Below, one piece after another: positions 1,231 to 43,868 of a DNA stretch of 64,000 nt. The translations under genes and the position numbers were made by a program. Under the pieces are notes generated by a model, which saw only the letters and a program-made list of their open reading frames with translations, had not been told where the DNA came from and ran no database searches. Origin of the DNA: Pelagomonas calceolata (lineage: Eukaryota); the NCBI GenBank assembly GCA_918797485.1, contig CAKKNE010000003.1, forward strand, positions 3,286,001-3,350,000. The letters are read 5' to 3'. The first letter of the stretch is position 1. The number at the start of each line of letters is the position of its first letter.

Positions 1231-1637
1231 CGCGCAGACCTCGCTTTGAAGAGCGCTGAAACGAGCGCCGCGCGCGCGGTTTTAATTAAAGCCGCTCAGC
1301 CCAGCGGTCGACATGCATGTAGGGCTTCGGCACAGGCCGTTCTGGCCAGCCTTGATGGTCTCTGCGCGGAGTTATCGCGTGTTTTACGGAGGCGCTGAAA
1401 CGCTAGCGCGTTTACACCGTTAGATAACTGCCTCGATGTCACCCACCCCTTTTTTCGGGAGGAAAAAGGGGTAGCACCCCGAACGACGTAGGAGAGAGGG
1501 GTGGTACCCCTTTGACGACGTAAAAGAGGGGTGGGGTCTTTACGCACCAGACCTCTAGTGCACACTTAACCTCGGTAGGGGGCGCTGCGGGTTGGCGGTA
1601 GCGTGACAGCCGCAAGAGAAGCTTATAGACTGAGTGA

Positions 1638-2337
1638 ATCATGATCATCCTGATGACTCGGATCATGCCGCCGGCCAGTGATGATGATCATGATCATGAT
1701 GTTGGCGGCTCGGGAAGCGTCCGCGGTTGCCAGTGGCTTTCTGCTATCATGATGCCATCATCATCATGGCGTGACTTGGATGCATCTCAGCCATAGTATC
1801 CGAGTCCAAGTCGTCGAGTTAGGCCACTGGCACGGCTCGTAGCACGAGCCCAGCCCACTTACTTGTACGCAATCACGCGCACCGTGACGCTCAGGCTCTC
1901 GCGGTCCATACGACCTCGGCTTCTGACGGGTCAAGACCTGCGCGAATTACCGTCACGTCATTTCTGCCGGCCCGGGCCCGGGACCAGGAATCAGAGCTAA
2001 TTTGAACTTGAAGAGAAAAAGGCAAATCAAACCCTACGTCTAGATACTCTACGATTCGTTGCGGAGTGTCAAAACTGTGCTGGCTGGACGAGATACGTAA
2101 TTATTGACTGGCTCAGGCTGTCAAAGAACAGCCCGGGCCGCGGCGAATACAAATCATAGTAGTAGTAGGTGTCAAAGAACAGCGGCCAGTAGACTCGGAA
2201 CCGCGACCCCAATTAATTCTCTAAATTAACTCACTGACGGTAAGCCTGAATTACTAGGAGTGGGAGCCTGAGGCGACCCCCCCCGGGCCCGGGCCCTCAG
2301 GCTATTAACTTGAAGGGGACTCGGATATTGCCGCGGC
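1638..2337. other. Dense cluster of XY-C-rc(XY)-G-XY scars (putative transposon excision footprints)
   Basis: Matches counted by eye at 1638, 1655, 1687, 1693, 1728, 1746, 1799, 1825, 1881, 1890, 1969, 1975, 2005, 2112, 2132, 2137, 2192, 2265, 2282, 2288, 2296, 2307, 2318, 2330. Confidence 0.85.
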
Positions 2338-2520
2338 CAGTGCAGTGGTACCCGGGGCCGGACCCTTGGGATATTGGTACTTGTATTACCCGGGGTCTTA
2401 ATTCAAATACGTGGTGTGCTTGGAGACGTCCCAGTTGAACATTACAATCTCGCTAGAAATGTACTTCTGCTATGCTACGAGCTTGTACTAGTGTGTTGGC
2501 CGGCGTAGCGACTGGAGACG

Positions 2521-3864
2521 ATGCAGAGCGAGGAGGCAAGTTGTTCTAGCCGAATTACATATGAAGCCGGAGCGTACAGGTTGAGAGGGACGATAAAGAG
2601 CTCGACATCTCGAACAACGATGTTTGCACCAAGTAGACCTCAGCCCCTTATATGTATAGTTAACTCCGACGTACCAGGTACCGTGAGGCTGGAAAAATTG
2701 TCAACTTGGCGCTACACGGACTAATACTGCAAGTGAAACCAGGTGTTAAGGTTCTGGACCTGTGCAAGTTCGGAGATACTGTTATCACACAGAAATGCGG
2801 CACAATCTATCAGAAAAAAGTTAAAGGTAGAGCCATTGAGAAGGGGGTCGCATTTCCGACGTGCAATCAGCGTGCAGAAATGCCATATTATCATCAGGAA
2901 CAGTAGTTCACTTTTGTCTTGTGCCTTTTTGATAATAAATAAATCCCTACATAGTTGTGTCTCTGTGAATGAGTGTGTCTGCCATAATTCACCACTTGAG
3001 TCGGACGTTCCCGGTGACACCCTTTCATCAGGAGACCTGGTTAAGTTGGACCTTGGGTGTTACGTTGATGGATATATCGCGGTGGCAGCGCACACAATGG
3101 TCTGCGGCGAGCAGCCGTGCCCTGAGAAACCGTTATCTGGTCCTCGTGCAGATGTGTTACATGCTGCTCATATTGCCGGGGAGGTGGCAGTGAAGTTGCT
3201 GCGACCGGGAAACACAAATTCGCAAGTCACTAAGGCAATTGAGAAGGTTGCTCACGACTTTAACGTGAATGCTTGCTCTGGTGTGCTGTCACACCGCATG
3301 AAGCGGTTCGTTGTAGATGGAAACAAGGTCATTTTGCTGCGTGAAGACACCGATCAGAAAGTTGAGGATTCTTCTTTTGAACTTAATGAGGTATACTCGA
3401 TCGACATCGCCATGTCAACAGGTGATGGCAAGCCAAAAGAGATGGAGTCTCGGACCACCATTTTCAAACGGTCTGTTGATAAGAATTATATGCTTAAGAT
3501 GCGCTCCAGTCGAACTCTTTTCAATGAGATAAATGCGAAATTCCCTGCGCTGCCCTTTGGGTTGCGTTCTCTAGATGATGAGCGCCAGGCTCGCATGGGT
3601 ATAGTGGAGTGCCTCAAGCATGAATTGGTCCACCCTTATCCCGTTCTTTTTGAAAAGAAAGGTGATCATGTGGCCCACTTCAAATTCACCGTGCTGATCC
3701 TACCCAGTGGCCCTACTCGCATTTCGGGCCTGAAGCCATTTGAACTTGGTGCTGTCAAAACTGAAAAGCGACTTTCAGATGAGATTAGTGCCATCATGTC
3801 CCTTGCATCAAAGAAAAAGAAAAAGAAGAAGAGCAATGCAGCATTGAAGGCAACCTCCTGCTGA
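2521..3864 (+). CDS. PA2G4: Proliferation-associated protein 2G4 / EBP1 (inactive peptidase M24 fold); 3 introns: 2536-2579 (GC-AG), 2633-2677, 2861-2954
   Basis: Manual splicing gives MQSEE|VERDDKELDISNNDVCTK|YREAGKIVNLAL...KGVAFPT|CVSVNECVCHNSP...GDLVKLDLGCYVDGYIAVAAHT...YPVLFEK...VAHFKFTVL and a C-terminal lysine run, all EBP1/ARX1-family hallmarks. Confidence 0.93.
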
Positions 3865-4169
3865 TGAGAATCGCCGTTTTGATGGTTTTAAGCCAGTTGC
3901 TTGGTCGCTACCGAAATAACGACGCCAATTAAGACTATCAGAAAGCCGCCGGCCTGGTCGTCCGAGCGGAGCGTCTCGCCTGGCTTACTTTGACGCTGCG
4001 ACCCAGAGCCGGCTTTAGGTGGTGTACGGTGAGGAACGAGGCGGCACGTGAGAAACCACCTCCATAGACACCCCTACTAGGATGCTAATGAGATAGTAGT
4101 AACTTGAAAGGGATTTTGTATACGCTTTTTCTCCACCCCCCTCACGGAGATACTGAGTACATATCTTCC

Positions 4170-4198
4170 TTTATTTATTTATTTATTTATTTATTTAT
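4170..4198. repeat. (TTTA)n microsatellite; another at about 58946-58993
   Basis: Direct reading. Confidence 0.9.
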
Positions 4199-5576
4199 GG
4201 GTAGCTATCAATATAGGAGGGGCTTAAGCACCAAAAATCAATATAGACAGGCGTTAGTAAAGGGTAAATTTTAATATGGGGAAGCCTTAATTAAGCCAAA
4301 ATATGTCAATATTTTGCAGACACCCCCTATTTCGAGCCCGCGTGCGCGCATAAGCCCAATTTGATAAGTAGCCATATGGCGATCTCATAGGATGTCGGTC
4401 GCCGACTACACCGTATTCGGGGAGATCGTGACCGGAAGTAAAATTCTGGTTGCTGAATATCCTTCAAAGCCTGGATTTAGCAGTTGATGAGCACTGGGCT
4501 GGGCTGGACGCTCGGACGCTCGGACGCTCCGAGTCGGACGCCGCGGCGCGGACGCGCGGACGCGTGCGCGTCCGCGCACTTGGGTGCTATATAAACCCCA
4601 AAGACGCCTCTTCATAATTTGAAATTATCTCAATTTTTTTGGGGGTCCTATGCAACTACGTGACCAGGTTGTTAGAGTGGCTATAAAATAATAGTACGAG
4701 CCCCAGGTCAGGGGCCGTGCAAATCAACGAGCCCGACCCGGACCCCAAGAGAGGTACAGGGACCGCTCCGTGCCATTGGCAGACATTGCGGGCTGGCTGG
4801 TATTATGGACTGCTGGCATACATGTGGTCCAGCGCAGCCAAAGCAGCAGTTCACAACAAGGCTGCCCTAAAGCTCCTGAGGGAACGATGTTGAGCATCAG
4901 GTGTGTAGATTCAGCCGTTTCGCAGGGCTCTAGCTAGCCCTATACCTGGCCCAGCGCAGCGCCTGCATAAGATTAATTAACGACAGCCCGCCACTATAGC
5001 CATTCAAGCACAAGCAGAGCAACCTCACGATTCCCTGGGACACGACCCATTACTAGACATTGACCAGAAGGTTTGCCAGCGAACCCAGCTGGGCCGGCGG
5101 TGCAACGCGTACTGGCAGCCCCGTTATGCAATTCGTGTGGATAGTAGCGCAGTCCATAGACCCAATGATTATAGGCACGGAGCCATGATAGTTGCACGCG
5201 TAATATATATCGCAACCAAGCATCAGTAAGCCCCCCAGCTAGCGCGGCGGACGCCGCGCCCTACTATTGATGACGTTTGCGAGCCCACAAACGCTGTGGA
5301 GCCTCTATAATGCCCAAGAAGCGAAAGCACGATGCCTTAGCATTGCCAGATCGCGCGCTCACCGCGACGGGACGCTTGAACCCAGGTATCGCAGTCTCCA
5401 ATATGGTCAGGTCTTAAACTGCATATGTCAATATGGAAAGCGCTTACGTAGCATATGTCAATATGCAGAACTTCTCAAATTGACATTTGCTAGATAAGGT
5501 TTCTTATATTGACATTAATTCTTTAAGTCATGTCTATATTGATTGGTTTTAAAGACTTGTTATATTGACTATTCCC
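4199..5576. mobile_element. Degenerate TIR element (GGG...CCC ends, subterminal TCAATAT repeats), possibly PIF/Harbinger-derived
   Basis: The left end GGGTAGCTATCAATATA...AATCAATATAGACA mirrors the right end TGTCTATATTGATT...TATATTGACTATTCCC. A minus-strand peptide PIIIGSMDC near 5150-5180 resembles the Harbinger transposase GSxDC motif. Confidence 0.5.
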
Positions 5577-5825
5577 TTACAGAATCCTCCCTTTCTTACC
5601 AACTATTTAAACACAGTACGGCGTTGTGGTGAGTTGTCGGAACCGGGAAAGCGTTGACTCGGCACGAGTTATAAAAGAAGGTTCAGCTAGGATGCACTGG
5701 CAAATGGCGGGTCCGGCCGTCGTGCCGTCCAAGCCGCCGTCCCGCGAGCATCGCCGGGCGTCCTGGCGTCCTGGCCGCCCCCGCCGTCGCGTTACCTACT
5801 CATCTCACCCGTGTGTTTGAATCGC

Positions 5826-6020
5826 TCGGAGGGGATCCGGGGTTAATAGCCCGCCGTCAATAACCCGACGGGTTTTCGACTAAACCCGTTTAGTGAGATT
5901 AGCGAAAGACCCCTCAGGACGAGCGGATGGGCGCAAGCAGCCCGTTGGGCTTTTGGATACGTACAGGTGCGCCAAGGCAAGTACCAAGTCATGTGGCCCG
6001 GCGCGGCCCAGGCGCCAGTT
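5826..6020 (-). mobile_element. Partial inverted copy of MITE family B
   Basis: Reverse complement of about 36903-37095 (CGACTAAACCCGTTTAGTGAGATTAGCGAAA...GGATACGTACAGGTGCGCCAAGGCAAGTACCAAGTCATGTGGCC). Confidence 0.85.
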
Positions 6021-6369
6021 GCAGAAAATAAGTAGGGTGCGGTGGTATACCGACCCTCTGCAACGGTGTGAGTGAGTTTGGCGTAAGTGACTCCCCGTGT
6101 AATACTAGCACTAAGAATGAATGTGGTGTAAACCTTCATTACGTCAAGGTGGGACTAAGTAGGAGAGTAAGAGGGGCCTAGTGCCAGTGTAGTACTAGCC
6201 TGAGGGGATATATTCTTCGCACTCCCCCTGAACCTTGATATGGTTTGGTTTTTCTTTTTCTTTCAGTTTATAGAGTAGAGCTTCTGTGTCTACTCTATAT
6301 TGTGAACCACAAGCAAACAGTGCTTGTGTAGTTCTCGGTCGGTGTGTCTAAAGTAATTCGCGGACATGA

Positions 6370-6674
6370 TGATATTTACCAAAATGCACATTTCAATGAA
6401 ACGAACGAAAAGGATAGGGGACAATTTTCACCCCATATTCTCCTAAGGGAAACAAGAGCTTACCCTCATGAAAAGGGGGAGTGCGATAAATAGGGCGAAA
6501 TACCCCCCCTATCCTATACCCTTCCTATACACTTACATCACCCTTCAACACGCAACGCGTAATAAACACAGTTAAAACCAAAACTACTTAGTGTATTTAA
6601 GGTAGCTCCGCGGCAGACTATCTCAGCCGCCGTACTCCCAAAGGTGCGTACTCCTTTGGTCTTGCATATTCGCA
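6370..6674 (+). mobile_element. 3' end of an LTR retrotransposon: polypurine tract, then LTR 6482-6674
   Basis: AAAAGGGGGAG is followed by TGCGA...TCGCA; near-identical to the reverse complement of 21563-21875. Confidence 0.85.
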
Positions 6675-7983: not shown

Positions 7984-8234
7984 CTTCTTGTAGTACTAGC
8001 CTGCACAGCAGGTACCTATCCGCTGTAGAGAGAGAAACCTACTAGCCCATCCTACCCTAGATATGTATCTCCCACTCTCTAAATTTGAGTCTATACATTG
8101 AGTGTGTATCGACGCTACGGTGTAAACCAATTTGCTAAAAAACACTCTCGTAGTTAGGTTGGCCCAGCCTCTGGCTGGTGAGCTAGGACCCTGCTACCTT
8201 ACATAACGCTGCGACATACTCTTGCTACGCTGAT

Positions 8235-8316
8235 ACCTACGGTACCGCAGTACGGTACCTACGGTACCTACGGTACCAGCAAGTACCGTAGGTACCGTGG
8301 TACCGGTACCTACGGT
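8235..8316. promoter_or_regulatory. GGTACCTAC/GTAGGTACC array in the divergent TTL/kinesin promoter region
   Basis: TACGGTACCTACGGTACCTACGGTACC...GTACCGTAGGTACCGTGGTACCGGTACCTACGG. The same motif recurs at other gene 5' ends. Function is inferred only. Confidence 0.5.
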
Positions 8317-10504: not shown

Positions 10505-10798
10505 AACTGAAATGAATGATAAACGCACTACTTTGTATCTCCTGCAACATGAAATATATATACTACTTATGTCTTGGACGGTATGCTGCAGTCTATTACA
10601 CTCGTGGCTCATGTTGCAGTATTTGAGCTGTCTGAACCGCCGGCGAATAATTGCAAGCTGGAGCTGGTGGTCTAGTGGTTTTAAAAGAAAACATACGGCA
10701 ACGGAAATGAGCCGAGGTCGGCCGAGTGGCTAGGCGGTCCTGGCTAAGCAAAGCAATATTACTAGTACTACTCCTCCCCGGTACTACCGGCGTGACTC

Positions 10799-11122
10799 CT
10801 AAGGTGCAATTTACGTGGGAAAAACGCGCAAACTACGCGTAAAGCACCGCTACAGGAGATCCGAGTCCCACTGGCACGTAAAAAACGGCGTAAAAAAGGA
10901 GCCGAGCCAATCGCTAGTTTTATGCTGTTGCGAGGTGCGTACTCTAGGTGTGCGCTTGCGCCGTACTCTAGGTGGCCACCAAGGCCTCGTTTAGTCGCTC
11001 TGCTGCGTATGTGCGGGTTTTACAAATAATTAAAAAGCCCGCGTAAATTGCGCGTAAAACACGCGTAAATTTACGCTGGACCGTTTCTCACGTAAAAAAC
11101 GCCGCACGTAAATTGCACTTAC
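10799..11122. mobile_element. MITE family C (hAT-like, degenerate 8-bp TSD)
   Basis: TIR CTAAGGTGCAATTTACGTG / CACGTAAATTGCACTTAC; flanks CGTGACTC / TGTAACTC (6 of 8 match). Paralogs at 43417-43868 and 23071-23230. Confidence 0.8.
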
Positions 11123-18329: not shown

Positions 18330-18750
18330 GACTAATTTGAGATTCGAGTTCCCAGCCACTGGCACTTGTGTTCCGGCAATTTCGGATACGGGCCCCAAAG
18401 AGTCCCTTTGTACGCCCCGAGACAGGGCTGGGGGAAAGGGGTCACTTTCGCGTGCCCAAATGGGCCTAACGTGCGGACTTAGCCTAACTTGCGGGTTTTC
18501 AGGATGAAAATAAAACCTCGCTTCCATGCTGGTAATTTGGTCTCCCAGGGGGCCTCGGTACCTATGGCGTGGGGAAGATACGTAGGCGCGGCCGGGTACC
18601 CGATGGGCTGCCAGATAGGTCGCCTGACGTGGCACGAAACGCCACCATGACTCCGATTCAGGCTGGCGACGTTCGCAGGCCACTAAAGTCGTTTCGCCCG
18701 CCCGTTTCGGTCACGTCCCAGAGGGGTACCTAGGCCCCCCTGGCTCGACT
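18330..18750 (+). mobile_element. MITE family D/E copy
   Basis: CTAATTTGAGATTCGAGTTCCCAGCCAC is shared with 21437 and, inverted, with 25443 and 59311. GGCCTAACGTGCG...TTAGCCTAACT.GCGGGTTTTCAGG is shared with 30867. Confidence 0.8.
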
Positions 18751-21562: not shown

Positions 21563-23055
21563 TGCGATTATGCAAGACCAAAGGAGTACGCACCTTTGGG
21601 AGTACGGCGGCTGAGATAGTCTGCCGCGGAGCTACCTTAAATACACTAAGTAGTTTTGGTTTTAACTGTGTTTATTACGCGTTGCGTGTTGAAGGGTGAT
21701 GTAAGTGTATAGGAAGGGTATAGGATAGGGGGGGGGGGGTATTTCGCCCTATTTATCGCACTCCCCCTTTTCATGAGGGTAAGCTTTTGTTTCCCTTAGG
21801 AGAATATGGGGTGAAAATTGTCCTCCATCCTTTTCGTTCGTTTCATTGAACTGTGCATTTTGGTAAATATCATCAGGTAGCACATGGGCATTTGCCTCTC
21901 AATGAATACACTTAATACTACACAGAAGAATTGGTAGAGTGTTCTGTAGATTGTTTTGTGGTAGGTCGTGGTGGTCGTAGTTCGTGGTAATGTAGCGTTG
22001 AGATGTCGAATAATTAGCAATCATTTGGGCCACCATAAGAGCTAGGAGCTTCATTAGGGTCAAAGCGTACCGCACGTCTCACTTGTGGAGTACGAGGAGT
22101 CGTACTAGGAGAAGGTGCGTCAGGCTCATTGAGTTGCTTCTCGAGAATGCGGAGAGCATATCTGTGTAATGGATCACTCATGCCTGCTATTTCAATCCGC
22201 TGACGCTCCTGAGTGGCGACAATGTGATCTAAAGCGATCATAACTACTTGGGTATATGAAGTTCCATCTCCTTTCTCCTCGTCATCTTGTGTTTCAGTCC
22301 ATACAGGGCCCGCTTGAGCTTAACAGTTGTGTGAAGCTTGCCGTCGGTGTCCCGTTACCTTATACCTTTGGGTAGGTCCATATATGACTGCTTTGAATCA
22401 AGATCGGACTGAATAAATGCTTGCGGAATATCGGAGTGCTTGATCGGGAAGCTACCCATCTACTGTCGTCGATATCCTCGGGTGCGTCTAAAATATCATT
22501 CAATGGCTTAGGAAGTCGTTGCAATTTGGACCTCCCTTGTGCGTTTTGACATCTAAAAAGACGACCAGCAGCTTGTACAGTTGTGCACTCATTATGTCAA
22601 ATTGTTCCTTTGTACAAGTGTTGCCAAGATTTATTGACCTCTTATAGCCATCCTCTTCATCCTGATCGGGATCGAGAGGCCAACCTGGAGGTGTCTCGGT
22701 CTGCAACCTAACAAATCTTGAGAATTCAGGTAATCTCTCTCTCACATTCTATGGCAAACGCGGTTCTCCAGAGAATGCCTCTTCTGAGGGCATAACCGTG
22801 TGGAGAAGACTGACATTTTTCTATGTTCGATATGTAGCTTTGACCAGGTTTGCAGATTGCGACATAGTCTTCTGATATCTTTGCTCTACGTGCGCCGGCA
22901 GAATGTTCCTTGAAGTACTTAATGAGCTTGGGTAACTTTTGCCAGTTGCAACCCAAGAAGTATAACATTCTTCTCGTATAAGTTTCTGTCTCGATACCAT
23001 TATCACTAACAAAAAGTGCAAGATGAGGATCTTTGTCCTTAGTTACTAGTTTCAA
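21563..23055 (-). mobile_element. Decayed Ty1/Copia LTR retrotransposon (3' LTR 21563-21760, PPT 21761-21771, RT remnant near 22360-22450) inserted into a MITE
   Basis: TG...CA LTR with 5-bp inverted ends. Minus-strand peptide IKHSDIPQAFIQSDL..SYMDLPKG matches the Copia RT D...AF...L...YM..P.G motif. Confidence 0.8.
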
Positions 23056-23230: not shown

Positions 23231-23502
23231 GACTGCCCGTAGTGGCCGCGGGGATATCGGCGACGTCTCTGCGGGTTGGCCGCGGGGTCACGGTCACGGT
23301 GGCAGGACGACGCATGGGGCGGCTAGGCCCGCGGCCCAAGCCTGAGGACCAATAGATATAATAAGGCCCATATACCGCAGTAAGAATACCAAGTACGTTG
23401 ATTTTAGTGTACTATACTACCTAGAATCCAACGCGTTATCAGATCGATTTGGTGCGTGTCAAAGCTGCTTTGTTGACGCTGCTTGGATCTGAATGTCAGG
23501 AG

Positions 23503-25359: not shown

Positions 25360-26037
25360 AAACTGGCTCAACGCCACGACATAAGTACCCGAGTGACCCC
25401 TTTCCACCAGCCCGGTCTCGGGATCAAAATTCGCCCCCGGAAAAGTGGCTGGGAACTCGAATCTTAAATTTTGGGTCCGCGTCCTTGTTTAGACTGGAGT
25501 TCGAGCTAATCTTATCGTTCGCTCCCGGAGATGCGTCCCAGACCAGCGAGTGCCCTTGCCCGTTTTTCAAATAGCAGTCTGTGACCCCAAGTCCGACCCC
25601 CTTCAGGGAGTCAGCTACCGTCACACGTGTTATGACCGACCGGGTTATTAACTCCGAATCCCCTCCGAGGGTTATTAACAGGTTACTTACAACCCGCATT
25701 TACCCGCACCAGCCCGCATCTACCCTGGTGGCGCCAGGGGCTGTTAATTTGCGATGTGGCCATTTCACCGCCGCGATCCCATATCGGCGCAGCTATCGGC
25801 GCTCAGGCAGCAGGCCCTCCGAGAGTCTGGCCGGCCCTCCCCCTAGTATCCCAGCTTCAACTTCCCCCATGTCAACGTCAAGTAAACGTAGTCCTACTTC
25901 TGCTGGGTTCTTCCGGGCTCTTTTGGACGTCCAGTGGCCAAGTAGGTCCAGTGGGGCCGTGTAGCATACTTTCTGATTTCAATGCCCATTTGGGGATTTG
26001 TTTGTTTTGGAAAGCACCCAGCCTCACATACATTTAT

Positions 26038-36769: not shown

Positions 36770-37144
36770 CTAGGTTGGCACTTACCCGAGGGGTTATTAA
36801 CCCCAATCGTGGCCCGGGGTCAGTAACCCGGGTAATTACCCGTTAGTACGGGTTATTAACCCCGGGATCTTATAGAGGGGTAGGGGGAGGGGGGCTCACG
36901 GGCCACTGGCGCGGGCCTGGGCCGCGCCAGGCCACATGACTTGGTACTTGCCTTGGCGCACCTGTACGTATCCAAAAGCTCAACGGGCTGCTTGCGCCCA
37001 TCCGCTTGCCCGGAGGGGCCTTTCGCTAATCTCACTAAACGGGTTTAGTCGAACCCGTCGGGTTGGGCGGGTACTAACCCCGGATCCCCTCCGAGGGGTA
37101 ATGATAGGTTAAAAACGGGTAATTACAGGTAAGTGCCAACCTAG
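36770..37144. mobile_element. Intact 375-bp hAT-like MITE (family B) with perfect 8-bp TSD
   Basis: TIR CTAGGTTGGCACTTACC / GGTAAGTGCCAACCTAG; TSD CCACTGGG at 36762-36769 and 37145-37152; internal GGGTTATTAACCC motifs. Confidence 0.92.
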
Positions 37145-40386: not shown

Positions 40387-41673
40387 CACCAAGTCCCGGC
40401 GTCGATACAAGCGTAAAACCTAGTACTAGTACTAGGGGCACTTTAGGTCCGGGTTTTGGGGCCCTGGAGGACGGCTAGCCGCGTTTTTCGCGCGGATTTT
40501 TGTACCGAGCCCTGCACCGGGTCGATTACGACCCCGCGGAGGTGGTTTGGGGCTGGGGGCGACCGCCTCTGATTTAAGGGAATTTATTTCGTGACGAAAA
40601 ATGGCCTCGGGATGGGCAACGGTACACTAAATCGACCCGAGGTGAGCCCTTAGCCCGCGGGATAGCTCCGATGACACCCGGCGATGGCTGAAACGGCCAT
40701 ACCCGCCCAGGTGGGGAGGGGTGGCGTGCGGCCCGGCAGTAGGCTTATCGGCTCGGGGTTCGTGACGGGAACAAGAACTTGCACCCACAGCCACAGCTCA
40801 ACAGAAGCACCCTCGGGGACCACATAGCTTCCCCGCTCCTCGGGCGTGTAGGAGACCATTTCAAAAATGTGAATTTTGGCCGCTTGTTCGATGGCTTTTG
40901 CGGCTCCAGCGCGGAGTCAAAACGCGAGAGGCCCGATCCGGGCACGATTCCGCCGGCTAGAGGGACACATTCGCTCGAGGGGGATGGCGGTCACCGACGG
41001 TGGGGAGCTCGTAACGGCGGATAACGGGGGCGACAATATTTTGGCTTTCCACGCCATCGCCGCGATTCCCATCAGGAAAGCCTCAACCAACTCGAAAGGT
41101 CACCACGCGGTGGTATGAATAGTATCGATGCGCGGGGTACCGCGTTTTCGACCAGGGTGCTGCTACGTGGCTTTCCAAAGCCTCGACAGAAGCGCCGCAC
41201 AAACGCTTCGCGCCGAGCGTCGCGACCTGCCCATCGTCGGTCGTGTCCATTTTCCTACAGCGCAGGTTGGCGTCATCGCTGAAACACCCCTGAACACCCC
41301 ATCTCGCGTCTCGAGATCGTAATCATGGTAATGCTAAGCTGCTGGTTTTGGCGTGCTGGTGGTCCGTGGCGCTGCGGTTGGTTCTCTCTTTCTCGGCAGG
41401 GCTGCGCGATGCAGGGTGAGCCGCTATGTACTCACATCTCTCCTAATCGTCTACGCTGGCCAGCACGCAGCGTTTAAAGACGAAATCGGGCCATCCAGAG
41501 CTCGTCTCGACGCGAGAGCCGATTCGCGCAAAGGAGCTATAACTTTGCGGAGGCGTCGCCGGAGCCCGTCCGACAGCCCTCGAGGCCTAGGGGGAGCTAT
41601 AGTCTCGTTTTCCTTTTGTTTGCTAAACCTGTTTTGTCTTAAAGTGCCCCTACTAGTAGTAGAGCCGGTGTGG

Positions 41674-42147: not shown

Positions 42148-42161
42148 AGATGATGGAAAGT

Positions 42162-43397
42162 CACTGGCAGGCTTATTAGTACTAGTAGAATACCGCCAAG
42201 GGACAGCAACCGTCACGGTGACTTGAGTTGAACGTGCCAGCAGGCCAATAATATGACCCTGCAAAGAGAGGCGTCAGGAAGACCTCAAACCTCGCAAATC
42301 TCCTGGGTTATTTGGCAGTTCCCTATCCTATCCTATTGACCTACGCAACCGCAGGACCTAGATCACCGTGAGTCCGTGACGGGCCCGTGGGCATTTAAGA
42401 AATTTGGTACTTCGGCGATCCCACAAGGAGTCCAAGTCGTCACTTCGGGGTTTAATTCAAGCCCGCGGCCCGGAGGTCGAAAATTGGGTCCTTGAGTTTT
42501 GTTTCCCCGGCTTTCTTAAGCTCAGGCTGCCGCCGGCGGTGTCACGGTCGGCAAGGCTGCCCTGGGCCCTAAGGGTCTTCAAGTTTGGTGGTCCAAAATT
42601 ATGCACGCCATCTCAATCATGATGATTCCTGAATTATTGTTCTTTGCATTGTTCACTGTAGACAAATCAGGAAGCCAACATAGTTCGAGTTTTATTGGCT
42701 TGACTAAAACAAAAGAACCGACCGGCGTGACCAGCCTGAATTGCAACATCCCAAACAGACGGAATCAGCTTTCAAGGAGCTTATCATGATTGTGTGGGAT
42801 GAGCATAGCCTCAGGCTGAGCAATCTGAATGAGTGCAGATATAATAAAGATAAAAACATAACGTGAATATGCCACTCATATCAGCAACTTGAACTTGAAC
42901 TTGAACCACAGAAGTATTTAGTAGCAAAGCCTTCCAAGCCTGAGTCCTCTCCGAGTCTCAGTCAGGTCGTTCTTACGCTTTGGCGGGTGGACTCGGAGGG
43001 GTCGGTAAGTCCAAGGTCAAAAATGTTGTAAGAGCCATAACTTCCATAACTTGAACTTGAAGAAAAAAAGCACTGGCACCTCAGGCCAGAGTAGTTCGAG
43101 CTTCATCAACTGGCGCTTCTTGATGAATTCGAGTCACAGAAACTCAGGATAAAGTAGCCAAGAAGCGCGCAAGGCCGCGTCTATTGTACTAAAGCCTGAC
43201 TCGCCGCCGCCGGCGGAGGGAGCTGGTAACTTGAAACCCCGCCTCCGGGCCACAAACTTCCGATTCGTAAACTCTGTAACTCAGGCTAATCATTTTTTTG
43301 TCAAAACATGCGCGATTATTTTTGTCAAAACATAGTGGGATGTGTTCGCACGGCCCAGGCCGAGAGGATCACATTGCACGTATTTCAAGTTCAAGTT
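42162..43397. other. Second dense cluster of XY-C-rc(XY)-G-XY scars
   Basis: Matches at 42162, 42180, 42212, 42521, 42531, 42541, 42578, 42616, 42783, 42810, 42886, 42892, 42898, 42937, 42950, 42990, 43048, 43054, 43071, 43208, 43228, 43280, 43384, 43390. Confidence 0.85.
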
Positions 43398-43416
43398 ATG
43401 GATGATGCAAAGAGAC

Positions 43417-43868
43417 CTAGGGTGCGATTTACGTGGAAAAAACGCGTAAGTTACAAGTAAAGCACCGCTACAGGAGATCCCACGTAAAAAACGGCGTAAA
43501 AAAGGAGGTATCCAAAAGTCCTTCCAGGGCTCCCGAAGCCGGCGCTAGCAGCCCTTTTAGACACTAGCTCGCGATCAGCACCTCGCAGAGTGTGGCTGCC
43601 CCAAACGTTGTCAGAGCCGAGCCAATTGCTAGTTGCATGCTGTTGCGAGCAAGGTGTGCACTCTAGGTGTGGGCTTATGCGCCGTGCTCGTGCTGCTATT
43701 GAACTGCGTGGCCACCAAGGCCTTGTTTAGGCGCTCTGCCTGCGTGTGTGCGGGTTTTATAAATAAATGCACGCGTAAATTACGCGTAAATTGCGGCGTA
43801 AATGACGCTGGACCGTTTCTCACGTAAAGAACGCCCCGGGCCGGGGCCGTGCGTAAATCGCACCCTAG
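43417..43868. mobile_element. MITE family C, longer copy
   Basis: Perfect 17-bp TIR CTAGGGTGCGATTTACG / CGTAAATCGCACCCTAG. Contains about 120 bp absent from the 10799 copy. TSD not clean. Confidence 0.85.

Follow-up and report, generated by a model that had tools for sequence, protein, structure and literature searches.

The intergenic DNA of the 64-kb window (the whole stretch of DNA that was analyzed) carries numerous scars that follow a single rule, in which a dinucleotide XY becomes XY-C-rc(XY)-G-XY, i.e., a 6-bp insertion with a 2-bp repeat. These scars were probably inserted one at a time, presumably upon the excision of a cut-and-paste transposon, and scars nested within other scars would be independent second hits. 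The motif has 123 matches in the window, compared with 16.4, 18.6, and 29.9 under Markov models of order 1, 3, and 4 (20 simulations each), and all 16 dinucleotides serve as XY. Recursive stripping of the window removes 124 events at 112 sites, whereas 15 other letter pairs used as controls give 14–32 matches each on the stripped sequence. The enrichment is confined to the 2-base form; the 3- and 4-base forms have only 1–4 matches. With a rough reading-frame mask, which left some exons near 29.2–32.9 kb in the non-coding class, only eight matches fall in 29,273 coding bases, equal to the control level, against 115 in 34,727 other bases. The chance background outside reading frames is about 15 matches per letter pair, corresponding to about 13% of the scar matches.

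The window is eukaryotic DNA, as judged by its host genes identified with Pfam (proteasome, kinesin, separase-like C50, importin, and others). Among named organisms, pelagophytes have the most similar proteasome subunit (Chrysophaeum, 76%; Pelagophyceae sp., 76%), and the same DNA is present in cultures and marine metagenomes from several studies. Two contigs from one metagenome scan, L001 and L002, cover a related locus; they differ by five substitutions and one indel, and because they are nearly identical and belong to one record series, we counted them as a single allele. The GC content of the window is about 50%. That of L001 drops sharply from 59–66% to 45–53% at about base 6000. As an extension of the low-GC side of this step, the window lies within a low-GC domain. 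In the available part of PMC9481584, the chromosomes of P. calceolata have 63% GC and one trough each of 52% GC, and the troughs are interpreted as centromeres. The low-GC domain at our locus resembles these troughs, which we take as a lead, and the scars may be restricted to domains of this kind.

Scars are absent (0 per kb) from an LTR-like remnant and from one MITE, amount to 1.5–2.7 per kb in the other repeats and the polymorphic block 1–1546, and reach 27 per kb in 1547–2519. The first dense patch (1630..2345), in which 25 events are spread over 20 sites and make up 21% of the bases, lies upstream of the scar-free main reading frame (2737..3864, forward strand) of a host gene that Pfam assigns to the Peptidase_M24 family and that we presume to be Ebp1/PA2G4-like. 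The second patch (42150..43400) contains 26 events at 20 sites. A further patch of ten events was observed at L001:5998-6520 between two convergent gene ends, with AC and CA scars overlapping at 6285. The density of neighboring scars is about 20 per kb at 2–20 bp, 10–13 at 21–400 bp, 6 at 401–800 bp, and 2.7 beyond. The unit of clustering is thus a patch of 400–800 bp, with mild extra clustering within 20 bp, where 46 scar pairs at 2–20 bp amount to about twofold the density at 21–400 bp; selection or chromatin could equally produce the latter. Around the scar sites we found neither a flank consensus able to steer insertion nor a dinucleotide preference. Cytosine is mildly favored at position −1 (72 of 212 half-sites, p 0.02, uncorrected over 12 positions).

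Comparison of alleles revealed the scars as single steps. Between the window and L001, compared over 10,763 aligned columns without an outgroup for direction, we counted 28 substitutions and 16 indels. All five six-base indels are exact scars, in agreement with an earlier note on this DNA, which had proposed that spacers grow in 6-bp steps, and both three-base indels read TA-C-TA or TA-G-TA. At the TG scar at 1728..1735, L001/L002 carry 24 additional bases comprising four further scars (TG tandem, GT, TC, and AG) and one substitution. This 24-bp indel at 1734 collapses via five scar steps to the stripped sequence of the window plus one unique substitution, as did none of 3000 shuffled inserts. 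Five of the remaining eight indels are homopolymer or single-base differences and one is a (TTTA)n difference; the last two, AC-TTA-AC versus AC (5 bp, 1566–1570) and a doubling of TAGT (4 bp, 11316), fall outside the rule and are perhaps footprints of other elements. In the spacer at 1551–2519, five rule-conforming indels stand against two substitutions.

Among the polymorphic scars, the TC scar at 1799..1806 occurs once in the window and twice in L001/L002, the CT scar at 2296..2303 and the AA scar at 4101..4108 are missing from L001/L002, and the TC scar at 4528..4535 is missing from L002. The empty alleles read T-AA-A, C-CT-A, and A-TC-C. As for the 3-bp variant, the TA at 2190..2191 reads TA-C-TA in L001/L002, and TA-G-TA at 4255..4259 reads TA there. 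Three-base (ATG, ATC, TAG) and six-base units are also mixed at AT and TA in 1638–1770, 2155–2168, and 41651–41661, as a +3 product would seed. Scars also decay, as seen in the L001 substitution at 2272. Paralogs within the window give the same picture: two scars, TC and CA (10860..10876), are the whole difference between the repeat copy at 10798–10901 and its paralog at 43416; both are missing in the paralog (43416–43507), and the TC scar is also missing in L001/L002. In addition, three paralogs lack the CA scar found in the repeat copy at 18357..18364. In contigs of four other runs, pieces differ by 6, 6, 6, 21, 30, and 33 bases, as judged by lengths alone; the 12 of 182 indels listed for this comparison come mostly from repeats. 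From piece lengths alone, run X5 seems to carry the nested allele at 2131 together with the extra 24 + 6 bases, in which case the short form of the window at 1734 would be a loss.

The longer copy of a 15-bp local duplication (2119..2145, forward strand) had been explained as the rule applied at GC and then at the new CC. Compared with the scar-free copy (2170..2184, forward strand), it indeed contains a GC scar into which a CC scar was later inserted (2131..2144), and in L001/L002 the outer GC scar is present but the inner CC scar is missing. This intermediate indicates that the nest at 2131 was built stepwise. The other nests named at the time are likewise present, namely a TG scar enclosing a GC scar (2329..2342, identical in L001/L002) and, by recursive stripping, an AC scar with a GT scar at its center (42209..42222) and an AG scar with a CT scar at its center (42807..42820). 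Stripping scars had also been predicted to improve alignments, and it reduced the gap bases between the two duplication copies from 12 to 0, which none of 15 control letter pairs did. Over all comparisons, including those with paralogs and the allele, gap bases went from 12 to 0, 12 to 0, 68 to 44, and 22 to 16. Of the 15 controls, two lowered 68 to 62 and three raised 22 to 28, and gap bases were otherwise unchanged.

The 11 compound sites comprise four nests and eight tandem events at seven sites. Whether nesting exceeds chance depends on the null. It does so against uniform placement over the window (4 nests versus 0.7 expected, reached in 1 of 60 runs) and marginally for placement over all non-coding DNA (1.0 expected, P 0.05, 60 runs), but not against local density: 2.2 nests are expected with placement within each spacer (P 0.16), the two dense patches hold 2 versus 3.1 and 2 versus 1.9 expected, and re-placement within ±10, 25, 100, and 400 bp gives 8.2, 7.1, 5.1, and 3.8 (400 runs each). 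Most likely, the nests represent independent second hits within patches that were already rich in scars, with no special re-targeting needed.

Tandem scars, in contrast, are in real excess above every null and are tied to the process that makes scars. Recursive stripping confirmed two tandems of the earlier list, three AA scars in (AACTTG)3AA at 42886..42905 and two GT scars (GTCACG twice) at 23287..23300. A third, given as GGGCCC twice at 2282, is a genuine tandem of two CC scars with ambiguous phase (2282..2295), but the sequence from 2282 is (CCCGGG)2CC, and GGGCCC twice begins three bases later. Stripping added two AT scars among 3-bp ATG/ATC units (1687..1700), two GG scars (1969..1982), two AA scars (43048..43061), and, as partner of the latter, two TT scars (43384..43397). 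A perfect 19-bp inverted pair, 43043–43061 and 43384–43402, 322 bp apart, contains both of these AACTTG tandems, which are possibly one event copied. The eight tandems compare with 2.0, 1.7, 1.3, and 1.0 expected under re-placement within ±10, 25, 100, and 400 bp (P at most 0.0025, or at most 0.018 if only six are independent), and they account for 8 of 12 compound events against 2 of 7 expected (p 0.007; 0.04 without the two possibly dependent events). Doubling occurred at 7 of 104 scar sites and at 1 of 1687 other seeds of period 6, and none of 185 motifs of the same shape with other letters was doubled; inside both patches, 6 of 40 scar sites were doubled versus 0 of 63 other seeds (p 0.003). 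Outside the coding mask, eight of the nine period-6 arrays of at least 14 nt consist of scar units, in line with the proposal that scars generate hexamer microsatellites. Scar pairs at distances 1, 2, and 3 number two each, and a smooth local-hopping kernel thus fails to explain the tandems. We see close to an even chance that tandems arise within one repair event by slipped re-annealing, in which the filled-in 8-nt tails would separate and re-pair by their last two bases, writing the unit twice. A further cycle that strikes exactly the same dinucleotide is a somewhat weaker candidate, and the single and double alleles at 1799 lean toward such a second hit and against slipped re-annealing. Ordinary slippage is an unlikely origin.

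Could an old scar, or its exact site, instead be the preferred target, so that nests and tandems count repeat visits to one spot? The earlier note had inferred such iterative re-targeting of hotspots. In favor of this idea is the tandem excess, seen at every scale and in the share of tandems among compound events, whereas the nests, although five of the seven dinucleotides of a scar would yield them, remain at or below local expectation, so that the "same spot" is in fact the patch. The five-deep compound in L001 reaches a depth seen in just 2–7% of uniform-patch simulations; its rarity favors some fine-scale re-targeting and speaks against a reading with none, as does the copy-number polymorphism at 1799. 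The roughly twofold pair density within 2–20 bp and the mild preference for C at −1, a base offered by the scar center, point the same way. Nevertheless, the excess is limited to a spike at the dinucleotide that is duplicated, with no more pairs at distance 1 than at 2 or 3, and no flank consensus steers insertion, and we consider preferred targeting of old scars improbable. If, on the other hand, scars were made once and all tandems were replication-slippage microsatellites seeded by the 2-bp repeat, the single and double alleles at 1799, like the 24-bp difference that lies between TGCCAG repeats, would be understood as length changes at repeats, and a step from two to three copies at 42886 would be easy. 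Since other seeds with a 2-bp repeat hardly double, whether window-wide, inside the patches, or among motifs of the same shape, slippage as the source of all tandems appears very unlikely.

The transposon itself may also be questioned. A host nuclease of the Spo11/TopoVI type might cut with a 2-nt stagger, after which a C would be added to each filled end, followed by hairpin formation and repair. Spo11 makes a 2-nt stagger, and REV1 adds C. We know of no precedent for such a route to scars. It would account for 64 kb with 124 events and no element, for the lack of dinucleotide preference, and for patches near gene ends, and a pelagophyte genome encodes SPO11 according to the accessible part of PMC9481584. 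However, known transposons with C...G ends and 2-bp duplications, as described in the portion of PMC12730594 at hand, provide both constants without extra steps, and the locus lies in a low-GC domain of a type interpreted as recombination-poor centromere in P. calceolata (PMC9481584, same part). Meiotic breaks would be expected to be rare in such a domain. We therefore judge the host-nuclease route to be highly improbable. That the scars are chance words, regulatory motifs, or assembly artefacts is practically negligible: the background of about 15 matches per letter pair would be in favor, but the use of all 16 dinucleotides, the gaps of exactly 6 bp in alignments with paralogs and alleles, and the recurrence of the same scars in independent metagenome contigs argue against it.

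Returning to the excision of a cut-and-paste transposon, the putative element would have C...G ends and a 2-bp target duplication. The non-transferred strand would be nicked one base inside the element, and the 3'-OH would seal each flank into a hairpin with the end C of the element at the apex. The host would open the hairpin two bases beyond the apex; the resulting pair of 5-nt tails would then join via 2-nt microhomology to leave the 6-bp scar. With a self-complementary XY, the tails could pair over 5 nt, giving XY-C-XY or XY-G-XY (+3). In a symbolic model with a 2-bp duplication, only the combination of nick +1 and opening +2 among nine geometries yielded the scar for the three dinucleotides tried, and it also yielded the +3 forms at TA; a flush nick led to +4, not +6. 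The geometry was fitted to the scar, and the +3 form is its sole independent prediction, resting on two indels. In the window, AT and TA with a C or G center show a weak excess (144 observed versus 93 expected; 115 versus 110 with an A or T center; p 0.04), and CG and GC show no such +3 excess (277/217 versus 209/156). The +7 product predicted for homodinucleotides is barely above the controls (3 versus 0–2), and other junction products (+4, +5, +7, and +8) are not enriched in the window. A bolder reading, which we consider less likely than not, is that this geometry, a flank hairpin capped by the end base of the element itself, is undescribed, that in the spacers of a centromere-like low-GC domain of an abundant ocean alga the cut-and-repair cycle may generate most of the length variation and locally outpace point mutation, and that its repair may seed most hexamer microsatellites. 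In the most extreme version, which is highly improbable, the host nuclease with C addition would write the scars in place of a transposon.

We searched for the element responsible. Candidates with C...G ends and a 2-bp duplication numbered 57 in the window versus 36–60 in five shuffles, scans of the window, L001, and L002 for inverted repeats and duplications gave no excess, and Pfam identified no transposase family in the 115 of 150 window frames of at least 90 aa that were scanned. The segment 4239–5541 (CA..TG, AT) turned out to be the interior of a GGG..CCC element, and 43349–43851 terminates within another repeat. Block 1–1550 is a candidate element: it contains the inverted pair 19–42/1429–1452, its right end is a G before AC, and its left end lies beyond the window. 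L001/L002 lack the block at this position and instead have an MCM-family gene upstream. The end motif of the block matched viral contigs once, over 19 bases and by chance (L003), and had no match in prokaryote genomes, and two repeat motifs from the window had no matches in viral contigs.

Several other repeats were observed. A 375-bp hAT-like element, whose ends read CTAG and whose duplication is 8 bp long, occupies 36770–37144, with related pieces at 5825–6013 and 25643–25685. Two elements with GGG..CCC ends and TA-rich flanks, which we take to be PIF/Harbinger-like, lie at 4198–5576 and 40433–41651, and the first contains polymorphic scars. The repeat at 8026–8310 is of very high copy number, with a depth about 100 times that of unique DNA; it ends in an array of 9-bp units with dyad symmetry, and contigs connect its end with its start. 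An LTR-like repeat (21563–23050 and 6364–6674), presumably Copia-like to judge by a motif, has a decayed internal part without a Pfam match, and one run joins 4031 to 6667, indicating an insertion allele. A 15-base word recurring in several repeat families (11174, 18068, 18631, 31038, and 52949) is perhaps a subterminal binding motif.

Under the excision reading, each scar would pin down a cleavage geometry, namely a nick one base inside, a flank hairpin, and opening at +2, applicable to a CMCT-type transposase. With five rule indels to two substitutions in one spacer, excision scars would be a leading class of mutation in intergenic DNA of a wild phytoplankter. They offer ordered, easily scored markers for population history, their tandems a route from break repair to the birth of microsatellites, and their stripping a useful alignment tool. 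The proposed insertion-excision clock does not survive in absolute form; it is rough and relative only, given the background matches, scar decay, the apparent loss at 1734, and the variation from 0 to 27 per kb. Nests gauge patch density, and tandems may not represent separate visits.

Tc1/mariner transposons target TA and retain terminal element bases between two target copies upon excision. The scars share with them end bases that stay at the donor site between target copies, but differ in their inverted target copy in the middle and in their targets. TA is found at 8 of 106 scar sites, with 5.7 expected, which contradicts a Tc1/mariner footprint. The excerpt of PMC5499845 moreover describes Tc1/mariner excision as proceeding with no hairpin.

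In the literature covered, which stops short of the older En/Spm and Tam1 footprint work and of supplements, neither the rule nor such scars in pelagophytes are described; the available text of 10.1101/2025.05.19.654958 lacks the words "footprint" and "excision", and that of PMC9481584 lacks "footprint". That hAT, Transib, and MULE transposons use flank hairpins and join at microhomologies is established, according to the consulted sections of PMC5873905 and PMC5499845. For Ac/Ds (hAT), the former describes footprints formed by a flank hairpin and microhomology joining. Such footprints and our scars have in common short P-nucleotide palindromic insertions, an odd center, a microhomology join, and few predominant products; the scar consists of two overlapping odd palindromes, which the hairpin model reproduces. 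However, the hAT palindrome has at its center the base complementary to the flank base that adjoins the element (PMC5873905, same sections). The apex in hAT is thus set by the flank and the duplication is usually 8 bp, whereas the scars always have C and G with 2 bp, and one product dominates. The hAT geometry would require C-XY-G targets, which the empty alleles contradict, and a 5–8-bp target duplication, whereas only the 2-base form is enriched here. Muta1 (MULE), Transib, and RAG share with the scars a flank hairpin, host opening, and end joining in the quoted part of PMC5499845, but Muta1 differs in its flush cut, flank-only hairpin (43 + 43 nt), and mostly precise excisions.

The likeliest agent would be an element of the CACTA/Mirage/Transib clade (CMCT). 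In the extract of PMC12730594, this clade (EnSpm/CACTA, Mirage, Chapaev, Transib, Plavaka, and ESTA) has mostly CA..TG ends and 2–5-bp duplications. The 2-bp duplication deduced from scars and empty alleles lies in this range, and C...G would fit CA..TG, a comparison that concerns the outermost base of each end of the putative element. A DDE transposase with C(2)C and H(3–4)H motifs, as expected for this clade, did not appear among the 115 window frames scanned. CACTA footprints are given as 0 and 4 bp in the available part of PMC4015899, and PMC3193017, as far as accessible, gives them in a figure. Overall, the scars appear to behave as excision footprints of the hairpin type, distinct from those of hAT elements and compatible with a CMCT transposon.
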